Positions 1,949-35,362 of a stretch of DNA of 35,654 nucleotides are shown here, in pieces (position 1 is the first letter of the stretch; each line of letters starts with the position of its first letter). Below the pieces are notes generated by a model. It saw only the letters and a program-made list of their open reading frames with translations, ran no database searches and was not told where the DNA came from. A program made the position numbers and the translations under genes. Origin of the DNA: a virus; UHGV virus genome UHGV-0232315; one strand, 5' to 3'.

Positions 1949-4285
1949 ATGATTGAAGAGGTAGTTATTGACAAGGTAGGCTCATATAATGGCCCTACGC
2001 AGCTTTTACATGGACTTTCTAAATTTAACTATTTATATGGAGCTAATGGTGCAGGTAAAACAACTATAAGTAAAATTATTAATGACCCTGAACAATATCC
2101 AACATGTCCGATTAAATGGAAAAATAATATATCTTTAATAAGCTACGTATATAATAAAGATTTTGTTGAAAGAAATTTTAGTCAAGATAAAATTAAAGGT
2201 GTATTTACCCTTGGTAGCGATCTTAAGGAGGATGAAGAGAAACTAATATCTCTTAAAGAAGAAAAAAATAAGCTAATGGAATCTATTATAGCAAAGGGAA
2301 AGTTAATAGATGGTGGTGATAATGAATTAGGCGTTATTAAAAAAATCGAAGACCATGAAAAATCTTTTAAAGATTCATGTTGGAAGCAAAAAGTAAAACA
2401 TGACAATGTGTTCTCAAAGGCTTTTGAGGGATTAAGGAATAGTAGTGAAAAATTTAAAGCCAGAGTGTTGGCTGAGTATGAAAATAATACATCAGAAGTT
2501 TGCTCAATAGCAGAGTTAATTGAGAAAGCAAAAATTGTTTTTTCTACTGAATTGACATCACATGTATCAATTACAATTCCATCCTTCAATGGGATAGATG
2601 ATATTTTGAGTAGGGAAATTTGGAGTGAGCGTATTCTAGGGAAAAAAGACGTTAGTGTTTCAGACTTAATTACAATGCTCAATAACAGTGATTGGGTTAA
2701 GGAGGGTTTAACATATTTCAGTAAATCTAATCCCAAGTGCCCATTCTGCCAGCAGGATGTAAATGATAATATATTTGATAATCTTTCATCATATTTTGAT
2801 AAAACATATGAGTTAAAAAAAAGAGAAATCGATGCATTGGTTTTACAATATGAATATCAACTTAATAATATCTTGAAGGCGATAGATGATATAAGGGCGA
2901 TTAAATCTCCATTCATAAATTATGAAGTGTTTGAGGATAAGGCTAAGATAGTATTATCTGAATTAAACAAGAATTTTGAATTGGCAAAAAATAAACGCAA
3001 TTTTTTAAGTGAATCAGTTCATTTTAGTGACTTAAGTGAAGTTGTTGATGATTTTATTTCTTTTTTGAATGATTCAAATCTATTGATAGATAATAATAAC
3101 AAAATATATAGTAATAGAAAGGTAGAGGCTAGTAATCTTTCTAAGCAGATATGGGCATATATCGTAAAGGTGGAGTTAAAGTCTGAAATAACTTCTTACC
3201 GTAGCAAATCTGATAAATTTAATAGGACGTTACAAGGACTTAAATCTGGGATAGAAGAAGACAAAAAGAAGTTAATGTTAAATACTTCGGCTATTGAGGC
3301 AATTGAGTCTAATAAAACCAGTACTCTTCCAACTATTACAAAAATTAACAAGATTCTGGACTCTTATGGCTTCAAAAATTTTTACTTAAAACCCTCCGAA
3401 GATAAAAAGCATTATATGATAGTAAGAGATAGTGGAGATAATGCTCGTACAACCCTTAGTGAGGGAGAAAAGACATTTATCACTTTTTTGTACTTTTATA
3501 GCCTTGTTAGAGGGAGTGATAATGCATCAGGTGTTTTAGATGATCGTGTTGTAGTATTTGATGATCCAATTTCAAGTTTAGATAGTGATATTCTGTTTAT
3601 TGTAAGTTCGTTGATTAAAGATTTAATGGAGGATGTTCGTAAGGATGAAGGAAATATTAAGCAAATTATATTCCTTACTCATAATATTTATTTTCATAAA
3701 GAGTTGACTTTTAATACCAAAAGATCCGGTAATCAAGCAATGAAAGAGGAGACTTTTTGGATTGTAAGGAAAAAAGGGAAGGTTTCATATCTTGAAAAGT
3801 GCGAATCAAACCCAATAAAAACGTCTTATGATTTGCTCTGGTGCGAATTGAGAAGAACAGACATTAATAATAATACTATACAAAATACAATGCGAAGGAT
3901 TTTGGAGAATTACTTTAAGATATTAGGTGGGATGGATATTAGGAAGCTTGAGTGTCATTTTTATGGTGATGAAAAAATCATATTTAAATCTTTAGTGTCA
4001 TGGATTAATGATGGTTCCCATTTTGCAGGTGATGATCTTTATATGAATTTAGATACGGAGTCTGTGCAAAAATATTTAATTGTTTTTCAGAAGATATTTG
4101 AATGTAGTGAGCATACTGCCCATTACAAAATGATGATGGGTGAGTTTTATAAACCGTTAAATGAGTCACTTCATCTACAAGATGAGTTTGATATAGATGA
4201 TAGTGCGAATGATGAGTATGCTTCGTCAAAAATTGAGATAAAAGATGGAATAAACACATCTCTACATAGCAACACATATTTGTAA
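1949..4285 (+). CDS. ABC-type (AAA_13-like) ATPase with coiled-coil CxxC hook; RloC/PrrC-like candidate anticodon nuclease
   Basis: Walker A GANGAGKT (aa 32-39), Walker B/D-loop VVVFDDPISSLD, internal CPFC motif between Walker motifs, C-terminal R-x3-E..H arrangement (RRILEN ... H); very AT-rich relative to phage backbone; GAGG RBS. Confidence 0.55.
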   Translation: MIEEVVIDKVGSYNGPTQLLHGLSKFNYLYGANGAGKTTISKIINDPEQYPTCPIKWKNNISLISYVYNKDFVERNFSQDKIKGVFTLGSDLKEDEEKLISLKEEKNKLMESIIAKGKLIDGGDNELGVIKKIEDHEKSFKDSCWKQKVKHDNVFSKAFEGLRNSSEKFKARVLAEYENNTSEVCSIAELIEKAKIVFSTELTSHVSITIPSFNGIDDILSREIWSERILGKKDVSVSDLITMLNNSDWVKEGLTYFSKSNPKCPFCQQDVNDNIFDNLSSYFDKTYELKKREIDALVLQYEYQLNNILKAIDDIRAIKSPFINYEVFEDKAKIVLSELNKNFELAKNKRNFLSESVHFSDLSEVVDDFISFLNDSNLLIDNNNKIYSNRKVEASNLSKQIWAYIVKVELKSEITSYRSKSDKFNRTLQGLKSGIEEDKKKLMLNTSAIEAIESNKTSTLPTITKINKILDSYGFKNFYLKPSEDKKHYMIVRDSGDNARTTLSEGEKTFITFLYFYSLVRGSDNASGVLDDRVVVFDDPISSLDSDILFIVSSLIKDLMEDVRKDEGNIKQIIFLTHNIYFHKELTFNTKRSGNQAMKEETFWIVRKKGKVSYLEKCESNPIKTSYDLLWCELRRTDINNNTIQNTMRRILENYFKILGGMDIRKLECHFYGDEKIIFKSLVSWINDGSHFAGDDLYMNLDTESVQKYLIVFQKIFECSEHTAHYKMMMGEFYKPLNESLHLQDEFDIDDSANDEYASSKIEIKDGINTSLHSNTYL

Positions 4286-25891: not shown

Positions 25892-26944
25892 TTACGGGGT
25901 AATGCCAACCGCTGCCGCCACTTTGCCGCCACTTGGCAGCGTTGCCAGAGGATTGAAACGGAGCGCCGTTTCCAGATGATCCGGTGCCAGATGAGCGTAA
26001 CGCATAGTCATTTTTATATCGTGATGTCCGAGGATTTTTTGCAAAGCAAGGATATTTCCACCCGACATCATGAAATGTGCCGCAAACGTATGGCGCAGAA
26101 CGTGTGTCAGTTGACCGCGAGGGAGCACGATTGACGTTTTTTCCATCACGGATAAAAATTGAAAATAGCAGTCTGTGAAGAAATTGAACCCATCAAGCGC
26201 CATGATCTCTTCATAAAGCTCTTTACTGATAGGGATGCTTCTGTTTTTCTTCCCCTTCGTTCTTACAAAGGTAATTCGGTATTTAGTCACCTGTGATCGG
26301 GTAAGGTTTATTGCTTCTCGCCAGCGTGCGCCTGTGCTTAAGCATATCTTGACTACCAGTGCCAGAATTGGGTCCTGACGTTTGCAATCAGCCAGCAGTT
26401 CAACAATCTGCTCATGGGTAAGCCATGCCATCTCTTTTTCTGCGATGGTGAATTTTCGCATGTTCTCCAGTGGGTTTGGATACGACCATTCGCCCAGGCG
26501 GGATAGTTCGCTAAAAACACTACTTAGATAGCTTTGCTCCAGGTTAATGGTGACCGGGCTGGCTCCTTTCTTCCATTTCTCGCTGAAGTAGATCTCACCT
26601 GTCAGGCGTTTATCTCGATAGTGGGCAAACATTTTAGAGGTGAGATCGGTTGCAAGAGGATTGCCCAGAGCGTCAACCATCAGCAGCAATTTGTCATAGA
26701 CATGCTGCCCAGCAGTCAGAGATTTACCATGTAATTTGAACCATAGCTCAACCACGTCTTTCAGTGTTCGACGATCCACTGATTCACCTAGCCAAGGCTT
26801 TGCTTCGGTTTCTTCCATCGTGTGACGCTCAAAAGCCAGAGCTTCGCCTTTGGTGGCGAATTGTTTACGCACACGACGTCCACTACGTCCGGCGGGATAA
26901 CATTCGCACAGCCATTTTCCTGTGGTGAGTTTTCGTACTGCCAT
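25892..26944 (-). CDS. int: Tyrosine integrase
   Basis: 350 aa MAVRKLTTGKWLCECYPAGRSGRRVRKQF... with C-terminal ...HVLRHTFAAHFMMSGGNILALQKILGHHDIKMTMRYAHL catalytic region (R..H-x-x-R..Y). Confidence 0.9.
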   Translation of the reverse strand: MAVRKLTTGKWLCECYPAGRSGRRVRKQFATKGEALAFERHTMEETEAKPWLGESVDRRTLKDVVELWFKLHGKSLTAGQHVYDKLLLMVDALGNPLATDLTSKMFAHYRDKRLTGEIYFSEKWKKGASPVTINLEQSYLSSVFSELSRLGEWSYPNPLENMRKFTIAEKEMAWLTHEQIVELLADCKRQDPILALVVKICLSTGARWREAINLTRSQVTKYRITFVRTKGKKNRSIPISKELYEEIMALDGFNFFTDCYFQFLSVMEKTSIVLPRGQLTHVLRHTFAAHFMMSGGNILALQKILGHHDIKMTMRYAHLAPDHLETALRFNPLATLPSGGKVAAAVGITP

Positions 26945-27026: not shown

Positions 27027-28358
27027 TCATTGGAGCAAGAAAACTTTTAAGGTGTTTTTGAATATTCTAACAGGGTCTTCTACACCTGCATTTCCTTTTA
27101 AAATATGATAATCACTTATTTCAGCCCATCTGTTTTTTTCATCGTTTTCAGAAGGAAGTAAAGGAGAACCTTCTGGCATATATTTATAAGTTATACCAAA
27201 TAATGCATAATAGTAGATGTTGATGTTATATTGATCTGTCTGATATGGGAGTCTATTAACACCGAAGAAATTAATTATTAATTGTGCATCTATTTTATCT
27301 TCTACGTAGTTAAGGGCCAGTTCACGACCAAACGAATAAAGAATTACTGCAAGGGTTCGATAACAGCAATAGCCTGGTATAAATTTATTGCTGATTTCAT
27401 TTTGAGATAAAATTTGATAAATTTCTAGATATCTTGATAAGGTTTCAACTTCCCGTAGCGACAAGCCTTTTAGTTCGATAAATTTTTGAACTATATGAAT
27501 ACTACTTTCTCCAATTTCTTTTAGTCTTTCAGACTCGTTACATAGCATTCTAAAATGAGAGTTCGAAGCCAAAATTTTATCGTAATTGTTTTCAGTGAAA
27601 GTCACTGGCAGGCTGTAAGTGAATTTTATAAATTTATCAAGATATCTTTCTGAGTCAACACCTGCACCGTAAATATGATTTATTGATGCTTTCAATTGTG
27701 AGATGTTAGCAACTAACAAGAAGTTAAGATTTTCAGTGTCAAAAACATGTTTTATATTTTCGATGATAGAGATGGCAAAGCTTGGTTTACAACGGTCAAG
27801 TTCGTCAATGATAATTGTTATTTTATTTTCGCTAGTTAGTTCAGCAAGTACTTCCTTGAGAGCAAGCAAATGTTTCTTTGCTTCAATATGATCATCAAGC
27901 AGTGCTTCTACAGTACCATCTATAGCTGAGTTAGCCGCATCTTTAATAGCATCTTCGAATTCATCCGCAATATCATCTGCATTTTGTTTTAAAATCCACC
28001 CAGCGCCAGCTTTGAGTACAGTTTTAAGTCCAAATCTCAATGCTGGTAATGCCTTTGATATTAATTCCTTCTTTTCACTCTCTGGATATAATGCAACTAT
28101 TGCAGCCATTATAGTAAGTATGGGAGCATCATTATGATCTTCAGTAAATGCATCAATATATACTACTTTATGCCCAGATTCATTTTTTTCAATCAATGCC
28201 GCTAATTTTTTTGAAAATTCGGTTTTACCGGTACCCCAGTCCCCATCGATAACAATAGGGGATATTTTTAAGGGGGACTCGAGTAAGCTTATTATTTTTT
28301 CAGCAATGATTTTTCTATTATACTCATCTCTGTTTTCAAAAGTCATATCATTATTCAT
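27027..28358 (-). CDS. KAP-family P-loop NTPase
   Basis: Walker A GDWGTGKT (GxWGxGKT KAP signature) and Walker B IIIDELDRC; ORF-track start 28367 is TTG, I place the start at ATG 28358 after AAGG; AT-rich. Confidence 0.65.
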   Translation of the reverse strand: MNNDMTFENRDEYNRKIIAEKIISLLESPLKISPIVIDGDWGTGKTEFSKKLAALIEKNESGHKVVYIDAFTEDHNDAPILTIMAAIVALYPESEKKELISKALPALRFGLKTVLKAGAGWILKQNADDIADEFEDAIKDAANSAIDGTVEALLDDHIEAKKHLLALKEVLAELTSENKITIIIDELDRCKPSFAISIIENIKHVFDTENLNFLLVANISQLKASINHIYGAGVDSERYLDKFIKFTYSLPVTFTENNYDKILASNSHFRMLCNESERLKEIGESSIHIVQKFIELKGLSLREVETLSRYLEIYQILSQNEISNKFIPGYCCYRTLAVILYSFGRELALNYVEDKIDAQLIINFFGVNRLPYQTDQYNINIYYYALFGITYKYMPEGSPLLPSENDEKNRWAEISDYHILKGNAGVEDPVRIFKNTLKVFLLQ

Positions 28359-28369
28359 ATGAAGCAACC

Positions 28370-28555
28370 TTAGTTTTTAGAACATATTTTCTTTGACTTG
28401 CTTTGCGTTCCATCATTGCAAACGAACTTCCCATCAGATGTACAATGTGAAACTCCCCCTTTCTTACCAGAACATGGATAATTTTTTGCAAAACTTGTAA
28501 TAGGTAAAGTAATAAATAAACAAATAAGTAGGATATGTATAGATTTATAAAACAT
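28370..28555 (-). CDS. Small secreted Cys-rich, Lys-rich peptide (predicted signal peptide)
   Basis: ORF 28370-28573; start placed at ATG 28555 after AAGGA; [23 protein letters not shown] then a 38-aa mature part with 4 Cys and 8 Lys; stop lies 11 nt upstream of the NTPase ATG (28358). Confidence 0.5.
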
Positions 28556-28578
28556 ATTTATTTCCTTATACATTAATT

Positions 28579-29142
28579 TTAATAATTGACGATCGCGCTT
28601 CTAATTTTTCCTATGATATCAATTTCATCTATTTTGCATTCAAAGGAACTGCTGCCACCATCGACATTTAGACGACGTCCCGGCAGTCTTGTCAGATTCC
28701 TGATAGCAACCTCGCCATCAATATCAACGATCCACTTACCATCACGTACATCCTCATAATCCGAATCACAGATAAACTCTGATGCGCCATCGATCACAAC
28801 AAAAGGTTTTTTTAGTTTTTCAGGCAAAAAGTTGTTGTCGAAAATGTAGTAACCATCAGGAAGTAGTTTTCCGCTTGATAAAATCTTCCTTTCGATCTCT
28901 TTTGTGTTTTCTTTTTGTGAACTTTCTTTTGAACCTTGCCCAGTAGTTAGCCACTCTAGCGACGTGCCGGTTTCAAGTGCACATTGGATTACCCATTCTG
29001 CCGGGAATGAATCACGCATATAGCGCGTGGCTAAGGTGCTTTTAGAAATGCCCAAATGATCACACAAAGCTTGTCTTGTCTTGAAACCATAGGCTTCAAC
29101 CATGCGCTCTATGGCCCCACGACCGCCTTTTTCCAAATTCAT
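28579..29142 (-). CDS. cI: Immunity repressor CI (phage 186 CI-like)
   Basis: ORF 28579-29148 (GTG); ATG 29142 after GGAG; N-terminal HTH region and C-terminal ...[27 protein letters not shown]... resembling 186 CI. Confidence 0.8.
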
Positions 29143-29267
29143 GGTCACTCCAAGTGAACTTTTACCTTGACGATTTCATGATGTGATCGTATGTTTGCAG
29201 TGTTCACATAATACAAACGATCAGTATTCATCCTGATTAATCATTGCTAAAAGAGGAATGTTGCATC
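29143..29267. promoter_or_regulatory. Lysis-lysogeny switch region (divergent pL/pR-type promoters and operators)
   Basis: Intergenic region between divergent cI and apl; dyads GTGAAC(29155-29160)/GTTCAC(29212-29217) and TGATCGT(29184-29190)/ACGATCA(29217-29223); two GATC sites. Confidence 0.5.
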
Positions 29268-30611: not shown

Positions 30612-30845
30612 ATGCGTAATATTGAAACCCTCTCGACCAAAACCGGACCGGATGACGCAGGGCTTAATATTTTACTGACAGAGGCTCGTCTGGAAGAACG
30701 CCGGGCAAGGGCTGAAGCAATGGCAGCTCGCCTTGATAGTCTGGCGTGTCATATTACATCCCGCCAGCTAAACCACGTCGAAGCGGCAGAACTGCTGCGT
30801 GTGACTGCTGAAGCAATCCAGAACGAAGCGCAGGAGATCCACTAA
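30612..30845 (+). CDS. Hypothetical early protein
   Basis: ORF 30606-30845 (TTG); ATG 30612 after AGGAGA. Confidence 0.55.
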   Translation: MRNIETLSTKTGPDDAGLNILLTEARLEERRARAEAMAARLDSLACHITSRQLNHVEAAELLRVTAEAIQNEAQEIH

Positions 30846-31072
30846 TGGCTGATGCAATGGATCTCGTACAGCAGCGCGTTGAAGAAGAACGCCAGCGCCA
30901 TATCCGTGCTGCCCGTGCCAAAACACCGGGCGTGTCACGCGTACTTTGCATTGAATGTGAAGCGCCAATTCCGCCAGCACGACGCCGCGCCATTCCGGGA
31001 GTGCAGCTTTGCATTACCTGTCAGGAAATCGCAGAACTGAAAGGCAAACATTACAACGGAGGTGCTGTATGA
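30845..31072 (+). CDS. TraR/DksA-family C4 zinc-finger protein
   Basis: CIECEAPIP...CITCQ four-Cys motif at the C-terminus of a 75-aa protein; TAATG overlap upstream and ATGA overlap downstream. Confidence 0.7.
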   Translation: MADAMDLVQQRVEEERQRHIRAARAKTPGVSRVLCIECEAPIPPARRRAIPGVQLCITCQEIAELKGKHYNGGAV

Positions 31073-31917
31073 GCACCATCCTGAAATGGGCGGGAAATAA
31101 AACGGCCATTATGGCAGAACTGAAAAAATACCTTCCTGCTGGCCCGCGACTGGTTGAACCTTTCGCGGGTTCCTGTGCAGTGATGATGGAGACGGATTAC
31201 CCCAGCTATCTGGTTGCGGATATTAATCCTGATTTAATCAACCTCTATAAAAAGGTTGCCGCTGATTGTGAATCGTTTATATCTCGCGCCAGAGTTTTAT
31301 TTGAGAACGCAAACAGGGAGATGGCTTATTACAACATAAGGCAGGAGTTTAATTACTCAACTGAAATTACTGATTTCATGAAAGCAGTATATTTCCTGTA
31401 TCTCAATCGTCACGGTTACCGTGGTTTATGTCGCTATAACAAGAGCGGGCATTTCAACATTCCCTACGGTAATTATAAAAATCCGTATTTCCCTGAAAAA
31501 GAAATTCGTGCATTTGCAGAAAAAGCCCAGCGGGCAACATTTATCTGCGCCAGCTTCGATGAAACGCTGGCAATGTTGCACGCGGGGGATGTTGTGTATT
31601 GCGATCCGCCTTATGACGGTACGTTTTCCGGCTATCACACTGACGGCTTCACTGAAGATGACCAGTATCACCTGGCATCCGTTCTTGAACATCGGTCATC
31701 AGAAGGACATCCGGTCATTGTTTCTAACAGTGACACATCCCTGATCCGTTCGCTGTATCGCAATTTCACTCACCACTACATCAAGGCAAAACGCAGCATT
31801 GGCGTGTCAGCTGGCGAGAGTAAATCTGCAACAGAAATCATTGCCACCAAATCAGCTGGGTGGTTTGGTGTCGATTTTGCCAGCGGCTCTGACCGTACCG
31901 TTGAGGTACGCGCATGA
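31069..31917 (+). CDS. dam: DNA N6-adenine methyltransferase (Dam/D12 class)
   Basis: ORF 31009-31917; ATG 31069 after GGAGGTG; N-terminal KWAGNK and catalytic DPPY ([10 protein letters not shown]) motifs. Confidence 0.85.
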
Positions 31918-32924
31918 ATGCTATCGATCCGCGTTGCTTTGCCTCAGGCACCATTAACGTCATCACTACTTCTGGTGGCAAAGATAGTCTCGCTCAATGG
32001 CTAAGAGCCATTGAAAACGATGTTCCGCATATTTCTGTATTTGCCGATACGGGTCATGAACATCCACAGACAATAGAATATCTGGATTATCTGGAATCAA
32101 AGCTGGGCAAGATTATTCGCGTCAAAGCGGATTTCACACGCCAGATAGAAGGGAAACGTAAATTCATTGCGGAAAAGTGGCCCATTTCTCTCGTTGAGGA
32201 ATGTGGTATGTCGACAGATGAGGCTGAGGAACGTATTTACCGGGCACTGGAAATCCTTAAACCAACCGGCGTTCCGTTTCTTGATTTGTGCATGTGGAAA
32301 GGTCGCTTCCCTTCAACAAAAGCTCGTTTCTGCACTTTTGAACTGAAACATGAACCAATACGTACACAGGTAATCGATCCAGCTCTGGATGAATACGATG
32401 AGGTAATCAGCTGGCAAGGAGTCCGGGGGCAGGAATCACCGGAACGTGCATTGTTGCCTGAGTGGGAGGACGATGCAGACAATACTCTGGGGCTGCATGT
32501 TTATCGTCCGATCCTTAATTGGCTGCATGAGGATGTGTTTGCTATTGCCAAACGTCATGGCATTAAGCCTAACCCCCTTTATATGCAGGGATGCAGTCGT
32601 GTCGGTTGTATGCCATGCATTCATGCTCGCAAGTCAGAACTTGGAGAGATTTTCCAACGCTGGCCAGAAGAAATCCGCCGAGTGGCTGAGTGGGAAAGAC
32701 TGGTTGCGGAATGTTCAAGACGTGGCAATTCAACGTTCTTTCCATCCACGCATGATCCGCGCCGTGCTGAAAAACGGATCGAAGTCATAACTGTTGATGC
32801 TTATGGTATTGAAACTTATCGGGACTGGGCCTTAACGACTCGGGGCGGTATGCAGTTTGACCTGCTGGCAGGCATGAATGATAAAGCGGTGTGCAGCAGT
32901 GTATATGCAGGAGTCTGTGAGTGA
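31914..32924 (+). CDS. PAPS-reductase/DndC-like PP-loop ATP pyrophosphatase family protein
   Basis: PP-loop TSGGKDS near the N-terminus, C-terminal Cys cluster [10 protein letters not shown]; ATGA overlap with the dam stop. Confidence 0.7.
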
Positions 32925-35362
32925 CAGAGATCAGCACAGGCCGTCTTGCCGATCCATTTGTCAGTGTAACTTCCGGTAGCATTGAGAATTCTGCCGGGGG
33001 TTATTCGTGGAATTTACCTAAGAAAGCCATTAACCCTTATCTGGACCCGGCGGAAGTTGCGCCGGTTTCTGCGCTTTCAAACCTGATCACTCTGTACGCT
33101 ACCGATAACGAGCAGGAACAACTGCGCCGCGAGGCACTGAGTGATCAGGTCTGGGAGCGTTATTTCTTTAATGAATCCCGTGATCCTGTCCAGCGCGAAA
33201 TGGAGCAGGATAAGCTCATTAGCCGGGCAAAGTTGGCGCATGAGCAGCAGCGTTTTAACCCGGACATGGTCATTCTGGCAGACGTCAGCGCCCAGCCCTC
33301 CCATATCAGCAAGCCGCTGATGCAACGTATTGAATACTTCAGCAGCCTGGGCAGGCCAAAGGCTTATTCCCGCTATTTACGTGAGACGATTAAGCCATGT
33401 CTGGAACGACTGGAGCATGTACGCGACAGCCAGCTATCTGCATCTTTTCGTTTTATGGCAAGCCATGTAGGGCTGGACGGCCTGCTGATTCTGCCTGAAA
33501 TGAGTCAGGATCAGGTGAAACGCCTGTCTACCCTTGTCGCTGCGCATATGAGCATGTGCCTTGATGCAGCTTGTGGTGATTTGTATGCCACCGATGACGT
33601 TAAGCCAGAAGAAATCCGCAATACATGGGAAAAGGTGGCAGCGGAAACCCTGCGTCTGGATGTCATCCCGCCTGCGTTTGAGCAACTCCGTCGGAAAAGA
33701 AACCGCCGTAAACCCGTGCCCTATGAACTCATTCCGGGTTCGCTGGCGCGTATGTTGTGCGCCGACTGGTGGTACCGGAAATTATGGAAAATGCGTTGCG
33801 AATGGCGGGAAGAGCAGTTGCGTGCTGTCTGCCTGGTCAGCAAAAAAGCATCTCCCTATGTCAGCTATGAAGCCGTGATGCATAAACGTGAGCAGCGCCG
33901 CAAGTCACTGGAGTTTTTCCGTTCTCATGAACTGGTGAACGAAGAGGGCGACACGCTGGATATGGAAGACGTGGTAAACGCCAGCAGCAGCAACCCGGCG
34001 CACCGCCGCAATGAGATGATGGCCTGTGTTAAAGGTCTGGAGCTTATCGCGGAAATGCGCGGTGACTGCGCCGTTTTCTACACCATTACCTGTCCGTCAC
34101 GTTTCCATTCTACGCTCAATAACGGCAGACCAAACCCAACCTGGACAAATGCGACGGTAAGACAAAGCAGCGATTATCTGGTCGGCATGTTTGCTGCATT
34201 TCGTAAGGCGATGCACAAAGCCGGGTTGCGCTGGTATGGCGTGCGGGTGGCTGAGCCGCATCATGACGGTACAGTTCACTGGCACCTGTTGTGTTTCATG
34301 CGCAAAAAAGACCGCCGCGCCATTACTGCATTGTTGCGTAAGTTTGCCATCCGTGAAGACCGCGAGGAACTGGGTAATAACACTGGTCCACGCTTTAAAT
34401 CTGAGCTGATAAACCCGCGCAAAGGAACGCCGACAAGCTACATCGCGAAATACATCAGTAAGAACATTGACGGGCGTGGTCTGGCTGGCGAGATCAGCAA
34501 GGAAACGGGTAAATCCCTGCGTGATAACGCTGAATACGTTAATGCCTGGGCGTCTCTGCATCGTGTACAGCAATTCCGCTTCTTTGGTATTCCGGGACGT
34601 CAGGCTTACCGTGAACTTCGCTTGCTGGCTGGTCAGGCGGCAAGGCAACAGGGTGACAAAAAAGCAGGTGCGCCGGTACTGGATAACCCGCGTCTTGATG
34701 CCATTCTGGCTGCTGCTGATGCTGGTTGTTTTGCCACCTACATCATGAAGCAGGGCGGCGTACTGGTTCCCCGCAAATATCACCTCATCAGAACCGCTTA
34801 TGAAATCAACGAAGAGCCAACCGCCTATGGCGATCACGGTATTCGTATTTATGGCATCTGGTCACCCATTGCAGAGGGCAAGATCTGCACTCATGCAGTG
34901 AAGTGGAAAATGGTTCGTAAGGCCGTTGACGTTCAGGAGGCGGCAGCCGACCAGGGCGCTTGCGCCCCTTGGACTCGTGGCAATAATTGTCCCCTTGCTG
35001 AAAATTTGCACCAACAAGGGAAAGACAAATCAGCTGATGGGGATACCAGGACGGACATTACCCACATGGATGACAATGAGTTGCACGATTACCTGCACAG
35101 TATGAGCAAAAAAGAGCGCCGGGAACTGGCTGCAAGGTTACGCCTGGTGAAACCGAAACGGCGTAAAGACTACAAACAGCGAATTACAGACCATCAGCGA
35201 CAGCAGCTCGTCTATGAACTGAAGTCCAGAGGATTTGATGGTAGCGAGAAAGAGGTCGATTTACTCCTTCGCGGCGGCAGTATTCCGTCAGGAGCAGGCC
35301 TGCGTATCTTCTATCGGAACCAGCGTTTGCGGGAAGATGATAAGTGGCGGAACCTGTATTAA
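32921..35362 (+). CDS. A: Replication initiation endonuclease (P2/186 gene A-like, rolling-circle HUH type)
   Basis: 813 aa; GTG start overlapping the upstream stop; HWHLLCF (HUH-type motif) and tyrosine pair YIAKYISK. Confidence 0.85.

Follow-up and report, generated by a model that had tools for sequence, protein, structure and literature searches.

The early operon of the 186-like prophage UHGV-0232315 raises the question of whether a Dam-type DNA methyltransferase and a PAPS-reductase-like PP-loop protein, encoded by overlapping genes directly upstream of replication gene A, work together in marking phage DNA. We analyzed the whole 35,654-nt stretch (hereafter the window), which represents an entire 186-like (Peduoviridae) prophage from Escherichia coli. 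Both genes belong to its early lytic (pR-type) operon and precede gene A, as the initial annotation had placed them: dam at 31069-31917 (+) and the PAPS-like gene at 31914-32924 (+). We found that they are separable cassettes and that the locus is an ordinary mosaic of two already catalogued genes. The most likely reading is that they are two independent accessory genes for DNA modification or anti-restriction, the second being a PP-loop iron-sulfur (Fe-S) enzyme of the DndC/SspD-like kind.

The second gene encodes a 336-aa PP-loop protein of the PAPS-reductase superfamily (PF01507, E 5.7e-34), a homolog of 186 orf84 (CP84; NP_052288) with 80.8% identity over 99% of the protein. It matches PHROG 15238 (E 2e-85) and PHROG 424 (E 7e-82), and orf84 homologs also occur in Yersinia phage P37 and in further P2-like genomes. 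A library-wide search (E up to 1e-3) found 2,253 representatives of the clade at 50% clustering, and conservation was measured on 118 representatives at the same clustering. The PP-loop SGGKDS (aa 20-25; 31971-31988, +) is invariant or nearly so in the clade, as are D45, E49, C140, K145, G169-x-R171, E174, N220-x-L-Y223, R229-V-G-C232-x-P-C235, K240 and C335. Catalytic and cysteine residues are 97-100% conserved; C327 is kept in at least 80% of representatives, and the protein ends in 'CE' in 94 of the 118.

Besides the PP-loop, the motifs are RFC140TFELK145 (32325-32348, +), whose invariant Cys and Lys align with the CC..RK region of APS reductase; RVGC232MPC235 (32598-32618, +), whose CxxC falls on the Fe-S ligands of APS reductases; and the C-terminal tail AVC327SSVYAGVC335E (32886-32921, +). 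An AlphaFold2 model of the protein has a predicted local distance difference test (pLDDT) score of 81 and contains a helical insertion of ~55 aa, and the tail appears flexible (pLDDT <50 for residues 317-336). Hence, the SGGxDS PP-loop and the C-terminal cysteines that the initial annotation had seen are both present, and Pfam confirms the PAPS_reduct domain. As a side observation, a clade profile matched chain C of PDB entry 21fy ('PptA', 270 aa) weakly (E 1.5e-4), over NPLY...RVGCxPC; we found nothing relevant in the literature on PptA.

The initial annotation had likened this protein to enzymes that act on nucleic acids and had set it apart from the CysH enzymes of sulfate assimilation, and the separation from CysH held. 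All NCBIfam models for CysH and APS reductase scored the protein far below their cutoffs: PRK02090 gave 63.5 bits against 154, TIGR00434 36.7 against 165, TIGR02055 47.8 against 235, and TIGR02057 36.4 against 254. The canonical SGGKDS of the clade aligns with the degenerate SSSFGIQA/SFSGAED of PAPS/APS reductases. The ECGLH motif of CysH is absent from the protein, which ends in ...GVCE. In place of the CC pair of APS reductases the clade has a single Cys (C140), and its CxxC is present and aligned: RVGCMPC falls on SIGCEPCT/SIGCAPCT of APS reductases, where the cluster-free PAPS reductases have SVGD. Judged by its sequence, the PAPS-like protein is not a CysH.

Among defense-system profiles, the best PADLOC match of the protein is to SspD (E 4.9e-23; aa 126-264 only), followed by BrxP (E 6e-12) and a partial match to DndC (E 3e-6). 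The equivalog model for DndC, TIGR03183, scored 17.2 against a cutoff of 290.4, so the protein falls below the threshold for DndC itself.

The first gene encodes a 282-aa orphan N6-adenine DNA methyltransferase of the Dam family (D12). It matches MethyltransfD12 (PF02086, E 5e-76, 256 bits against a cutoff of 22) and the NCBIfam model 'dam' (TIGR00571, 321.8 bits against 114.85), and it aligns with the E. coli Dam structures 2g1p/4gol (E 7e-73) and with the PADLOC 'orphan MTase' profile (E 2e-110). Its catalytic motif IV is DPPY (aa 179-182; 31603-31614, +). Hence, the identification as a DPPY adenine methyltransferase is borne out, and methyltransferase activity is predicted. Motif I is EPFAGSC, where E. 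coli Dam has EPFVGAG, and the same variant occurs in common phage alleles.

The specificity of the prophage Dam is likely to be for GATC, as far as its alignment with E. coli Dam tells. Positions equivalent to K9, Y119, L122, R124 and P134 of E. coli Dam, which we take to be the GATC contacts in EcoDam-DNA structures, are conserved in the Dam alignment; N120 and R137 are not conserved. The protein scored below the cutoff of the E. coli Dam equivalog NF008152 (287.9 against 441). The initial annotation had pointed to two GATC sites in the switch region (29143-29267) as possible targets. Both sites exist, at 29185 and 29219, and they are no more than chance would give: two GATC in 125 bp has a Poisson P of ~0.06, and the whole window has 118 GATC against 118.3 expected from shuffles, so that GATC is neither enriched nor depleted. 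GATC enrichment was therefore ruled out as a signal. The Dam of E. coli itself already methylates GATC.

The Dam of the window is the one usual in P2/186-like prophages, where it mostly stands directly before gene A. The segment from the TraR gene to the PAPS-like gene (30845-32924, 2,080 bp) is 100% identical to the chromosome of E. coli OkiPb01677, and over its first 1,000 nt it shares 96-97% nucleotide identity with Escherichia phage Cartapus, Salmonella RE2010 and numerous Klebsiella phages, among them KP12. Cartapus has the order TraR, Dam, A, with Dam overlapping A directly (ATGA), whereas in the window the orf84-type gene is interposed. Megablast identity to the phages with Dam directly before A stops at 31844, just before a tentative terminator-like hairpin inside the 3' end of dam (31845-31870, +; 10-bp stem and T-rich tail). 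This hairpin lies 44 nt 5' of the PAPS-like start and has a z of -1.75, with a regional terminator count not above that of shuffles; it may be a translation-dependent polarity element, like tM1 of 186.

Genome counts show how freely the two genes occur apart. The Dam part was matched in 1,254 of 5,426 complete E. coli genomes and the PAPS-like gene in 68 of them, and the two stand together in only 24, leaving Dam without the PAPS-like gene in ~1,230. PGAP annotates the same Dam and PAPS-like pair in 24 E. coli genomes. The 68 genomes divide into 24 with the allele of the window, each with Dam upstream, and 44 with another allele (186/P2-type, 72-73% identical), which has DUF5405 upstream in both of two genomes examined. 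In one of these two, a cytosine methylase gene follows shortly after gene A. In P2-type prophages with this other allele and the order DUF5405, PAPS, A, a gene for a C5 cytosine methyltransferase stands just 3' of gene A (L259 5843-5955; L002 8234-8999), so that a methylase is nearby even without Dam.

The same holds for viral contigs. Among 80 IMG/VR loci with a PAPS-like protein at least 79% identical, Dam precedes the PAPS-like gene in 35 and TraR in ~18; in the remaining loci the upstream gene encodes DUF5405, an Rv2179c-like exonuclease or a ParB-HTH protein. Over the loci with Dam upstream, identity is 37-100% for Dam, 31-98% for A and 81-100% for the PAPS-like protein, and the adjacency persists even where Dam is 37-43%, A 31-35% and the PAPS-like protein 81-84% identical. 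Phages of this group have Dam before A by default, so that chance alone would leave Dam upstream of a PAPS-like gene inserted between them; co-occurrence of the two within P2-like phages is uninformative as evidence and was set aside. Hence, the two genes are cassettes that can be separated.

The initial annotation had taken translational coupling, with ATGA junctions on both sides, as a sign of joint function. The overlap of the TraR stop with the dam start is ATGA, as is the 4-nt overlap between dam and the PAPS-like gene; the PAPS-like stop and gene A start read GTGA instead (32921-32924). The flanking genes are a TraR/DksA C4 zinc-finger gene (30845-31072, +; zf-dskA_traR, E 3e-11; TIGR02419, 65.8 bits, above cutoff) and gene A, the rolling-circle initiator (32921-35362, +; PF05840, E 3e-127), which has a GTG start. 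The same 4-nt overlaps join other gene pairs: TraR and PAPS in a relative (L020), Dam and A in Cartapus, and both DUF5405 with orf84 and orf84 with A in 186. Because every junction of the operon is a 4-nt overlap whatever its gene content, the coupling argument fails, and coupling was discarded as proof of a partnership between Dam and the PP-loop enzyme. Hence, the 4-nt overlaps are generic packing of the early operon, whichever genes occupy its slots.

One consequence of this packing concerns gene A. RefSeq/PGAP places the start of gene A 60 nt 3' of the GTG at the overlap with the PAPS-like stop (window 32921-32981; L185 8137). The peptide read from this GTG is conserved in the relative L020, and gene A starts within a 4-nt overlap with the preceding gene in 186, P37 and Cartapus. 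Hence, the annotated start is probably too short.

A link between the wider clade and DNA methyltransferases did emerge from comparative data. Scans of viral contigs with single distant members returned one locus (P0180) and none (P0253), so an alignment query was used instead; a scan with alignment A1 returned close relatives only. The neighborhood set was 38 viral loci dereplicated at 70% identity, and methyltransferases were counted by a seed-based phmmer scan of all 777 neighbor genes as a cross-check on Pfam counts. Methyltransferases account for 10 of the 147 genes at positions ±1-2, for 3 of the 206 at ±3-5 and for 4 of the 424 at ±6 or more, an enrichment of ~7-fold beside the PAPS-clade gene (Fisher p 3.7e-4 against ±6 or more; p 0.018 against ±3-5). 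The Pfam counts agree, with at least 12 of 147 near, at least 3 of 141 at middle distance and at least 3 of 148 far.

These neighboring methyltransferases come from unrelated families (D12, N6_N4, C5 and MT-A70). In phiE125, an N6_N4 methyltransferase gene overlaps the PAPS gene and is followed by ParB. Methyltransferases lie within one to three genes in Acidovorax Acica (C5), Shewanella SFCi1 (N4), Stenotrophomonas S1, Serratia Parlo and a Porphyromonas phage, and Bacteroides BKO1-TP3 has three near its PAPS gene. One metagenomic protein (P0257, 560 aa) fuses an N-terminal NPPF-type N6-adenine methyltransferase to a full-length clade member, including the terminal '...CE'. Gp05 of the archaeal Methanoculleus virus L4768 (L258 1242-2486) has a weak N-terminal ParB_N match (E 1e-3) and a PAPS_reduct domain (E 4e-14); it is annotated as 'DNA modification methylase', and this ParB-PAPS fusion echoes the DndB-DndC and IbrB-IbrA pairings.

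Across phages, the PAPS-clade gene resides in the replication module, next to gene A, to a ParB_N-DEAD helicase-Toprim arrangement or to a helicase. Further replication neighbors are a Zn-ribbon and Prim-Pol protein, a RepL-like protein, a DUF3987/CHC2 primase, and ParB with a replication initiation protein; these and the ParB_N-DEAD helicase-Toprim arrangement were seen in unrelated phages (loci L087-L101, L255 and L003). Sulfur-metabolism genes were never found beside the PAPS-clade gene in the loci examined. This location suggests a link to replication rather than to metabolism. Taken with the counts, the claim of joint DNA modification stands in part: the clade is linked to methyltransferases in comparative data, but the evidence speaks against a specific pairing with Dam, and only ~30% of the diverse loci have a methyltransferase within two genes. 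The association looks like co-residence in a DNA-modification or anti-restriction neighborhood, or an occasional partnership, and not an obligate pair.

From these data we consider it somewhat probable that the two are separable accessory genes, an orphan Dam and a modifying PP-loop enzyme of the DndC/SspD kind, with a role in anti-restriction. The Fe-S cluster, sulfur chemistry, DNA substrate and anti-restriction role of the PAPS-like protein are what we infer for it; ATP-dependent adenylation and sulfur transfer are suggested by the canonical PP-loop, the three cluster-type cysteines and an extra Cys pair as in DndC. The protein would bind ATP through SGGKDS and adenylate an oxygen on a nucleic-acid substrate. 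This oxygen would then be replaced by sulfur from a [4Fe-4S] cluster held by C140, C232 and C235, and a persulfide on C327 and C335 of the flexible tail would feed the cluster. The likely role would be to modify replicating phage DNA or to co-opt host phosphorothioation machinery, and the outcome would be escape from modification-sensing restriction, for example of the Dnd, Ssp or BREX type 4 systems. The 4-nt overlaps would carry ribosomes on to gene A.

There is precedent for such a role. A Vibrio podophage into which a two-gene fragment was swapped became resistant to the Dnd system of the host, and one of the two genes encodes a PAPS-Dam fusion (Piel et al., bioRxiv 10.1101/2021.05.05.442762). 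PAPS reductases are also reported in Aca-regulated anti-defense operons (2026 NAR paper). The matching region of Vibrio phage 14E30.1 has only 'hypothetical' annotations and no Pfam matches.

Several observations weigh against the reading of two independent modification genes. The closest solved structures to the PAPS-like protein are sulfate-assimilation reductases, and its CxxC and C-terminal Cys resemble APS reductase as well as DndC. Motif I of Dam (FAGSC) departs from the consensus FxGxG. No methyltransferase lies within two genes at ~70% of the diverse loci, and the enrichment may come in part from both gene types residing in early/replication modules. The Vibrio fusion has another Dam family and a second gene on its fragment, and its PAPS domain may fall outside this clade. 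Finally, among the families listed, no NTPase of the DndD, SspC or BrxC type is adjacent here or in the 38 loci (147 neighbors), and no DndE or SspB partner gene is present in the operon of the window or in those loci. Each of the four phosphorothioation systems known so far depends on a P-loop NTPase partner (DndD, SspC or BrxC) together with a DNA-recognition subunit, and it is the absence of the NTPase that argues most strongly against a simple 'phage DndC'. It leaves as options the co-option of host Dnd/Ssp, a different chemistry, or an autonomous writer.

The last of these options is unlikely. The orf84-type protein would be a stand-alone writer of sulfur into phage DNA, as phosphorothioate or thio-base, that works at the replication module without an NTPase of the DndD/SspC type and perhaps takes its site recognition from DNA methyltransferases or ParB-like proteins that are encoded nearby or fused to it. 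If this were true, methyl groups and sulfur together would disguise phage DNA from Dnd, Ssp and BREX-4.

We hold it to be just as unlikely that the PP-loop enzyme acts on a target other than DNA, such as tRNA (by thiolation) or a nucleotide or 7-deazapurine precursor, or that in P2/186-like phages it serves mainly as a translated spacer for A. According to the 186 annotation the protein is dispensable, yet A requires translation to run through to the end of orf84, as a spacer would have it; in Cartapus, by contrast, Dam itself couples to A, and the conservation of catalytic and Cys residues in the 118 representatives argues for an active enzyme. For a target other than DNA, the structural neighbors include the tRNA thiolases TtuA and NcsA as well as QueC and Cap9, some clade members have weak QueC Pfam matches, and in one phage-like contig a gene of the Vut_1/YhhQ type (queuosine-precursor transporter family; L091 7974-8471) lies three genes 3' of the PAPS-clade gene. 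The transporter gene and the QueC matches are possibly a hint of deazapurine chemistry, or a coincidence. The methyltransferase enrichment, together with the ParB and methyltransferase fusions, points instead to DNA.

An obligate two-enzyme pathway, in which Dam and the PP-loop enzyme would lay down one joint DNA mark, for example with the methylase recognizing the site and recruiting the PP-loop enzyme, is distinctly improbable. Adjacency of Dam and PAPS recurs in very divergent backgrounds, domain fusions of PAPS with methyltransferases or Dam are known, and methyltransferase genes are enriched beside the clade. Against these stand that either gene is common without the other, that the neighboring methyltransferases have unrelated families and specificities, that most loci lack an adjacent one, and that both the overlaps and the adjacency are what the operon and the default order of Dam before A would give in any case.

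Very unlikely, too, is a non-catalytic decoy that would mimic DndC/SspD and titrate host phosphorothioation or restriction components. The remote similarity to SspD, BrxP and DndC profiles, the anti-Dnd precedent and the lack of the NTPase partner on which every known phosphorothioation writer depends would fit a decoy, but the invariant PP-loop, catalytic Lys/Arg/Glu and cysteines form the pattern of an enzyme. Weakest of all is a true auxiliary metabolic gene (AMG) of sulfate assimilation, an APS/PAPS reductase boosting the cysteine supply of the host: the PAPS_reduct match, the reductases as closest structures, the CxxC aligned with APS-reductase cluster ligands, the flexible-tail C-terminal Cys as in CysH and an annotation to this effect (PMC8879888) speak for it, and it is rendered highly improbable by the wide margin at which every CysH/APS-reductase cutoff was failed, by the canonical ATP-binding PP-loop that CysH lacks, the missing ECGLH and the helical insertion, and by neighbors that are replication, recombination and DNA-methylase genes, never those of sulfur metabolism.

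The features of the clade bear on annotation practice. 'PAPS reductase' genes are common in phages and are routinely counted in viromics as sulfur-metabolism AMGs (e.g. PMC8879888). The canonical PP-loop, three-Cys site, 'CE' C-terminus and replication/DNA-modification neighborhood of the clade argue against this label and in favor of enzymes that modify nucleic acids and probably counter restriction. What makes the locus of moderate interest is the biochemistry of a phage enzyme family that is both widespread and routinely mis-annotated. Since E. coli and 186 are genetically tractable, they offer a convenient system for settling the biochemistry of the clade.

Other parts of the prophage complete the picture. 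The early region has 186-type flanks, namely the CI repressor (PF07022/PF16452), CII (CP76) and Fil, and Pfam matches in the early operon also include DUF5347, DUF2732, the TraR/DksA zinc finger and gene A. Beside the portal and terminase genes lies a gene for an AAA_13 ATPase (778 aa; PF13166, E 1e-163; window 1949-4285, +), at the location of the 'old/tin'-type moron hotspot of P2, and probably represents anti-phage defense cargo. The two open reading frames (ORFs) that adjoin it (384-953 and 944-1525, -) have no Pfam match. A gene for a KAP-family P-loop NTPase (446 aa; PF07693, E 4e-51; window 27027-28367, -) and a Cys-rich small ORF of 67 aa beside it (28370-28573, -) lie between the integrase gene (25892-26944) and the 186-type cI (28579-29148), and are likely moron or defense cargo.

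Among known systems, sulfate-assimilation enzymes are the closest in structure. Compared with the APS reductases of Pseudomonas aeruginosa (2GOY) and Mycobacterium tuberculosis (7LHR) and with CysH (1SUR, 6VPU), the protein of the window has SGGKDS and a helical insertion of ~55 aa, and the orf84-type gene stands outside any sulfur-metabolism context. DndC is described as combining a PP-loop with a 4Fe-4S cluster that is bound by three Cys, and with a further Cys dyad (PMC10853773). The PAPS-like protein has a sequence pattern compatible with this, in SGGKDS, in the Cys triad C140, C232 and C235 and in the extra pair C327 and C335, and it shares with DndC, SspD and BrxP the genomic company of ParB-like proteins and methylases. 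Unlike DndC and BrxP, the orf84-type protein is much shorter, is encoded by phages and is solitary.

The Vibrio crassostreae podophage p0018 resembles the prophage in linking a PAPS_reduct domain to an adenine methylase in an early/accessory phage region. In p0018 this is a single fusion of 479 aa, with PAPS before Dam and a T1-type 'Dam', whereas the window has two genes, Dam before PAPS, and a D12 Dam.

The closest counterpart is 186 itself. The orf84 gene and its coupling to A have been known for decades, since the sequence of 186, and the 186 record describes orf84 as 'unknown function; not essential; translation to end of orf84 appears necessary for translation of A protein'. The study of Burkholderia P2-like phages (PMC3091744) makes no mention of PAPS. 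The gene of the window shares with 186 orf84 the slot directly 5' of gene A, the 4-nt overlap and the early operon. It differs in that DUF5405 stands upstream of orf84 in 186 and P37 and Dam in the window, and in that the junction with gene A is ATGA in 186 and P37 and GTGA in the window, gene A starting with ATG in 186 and with GTG in the window.

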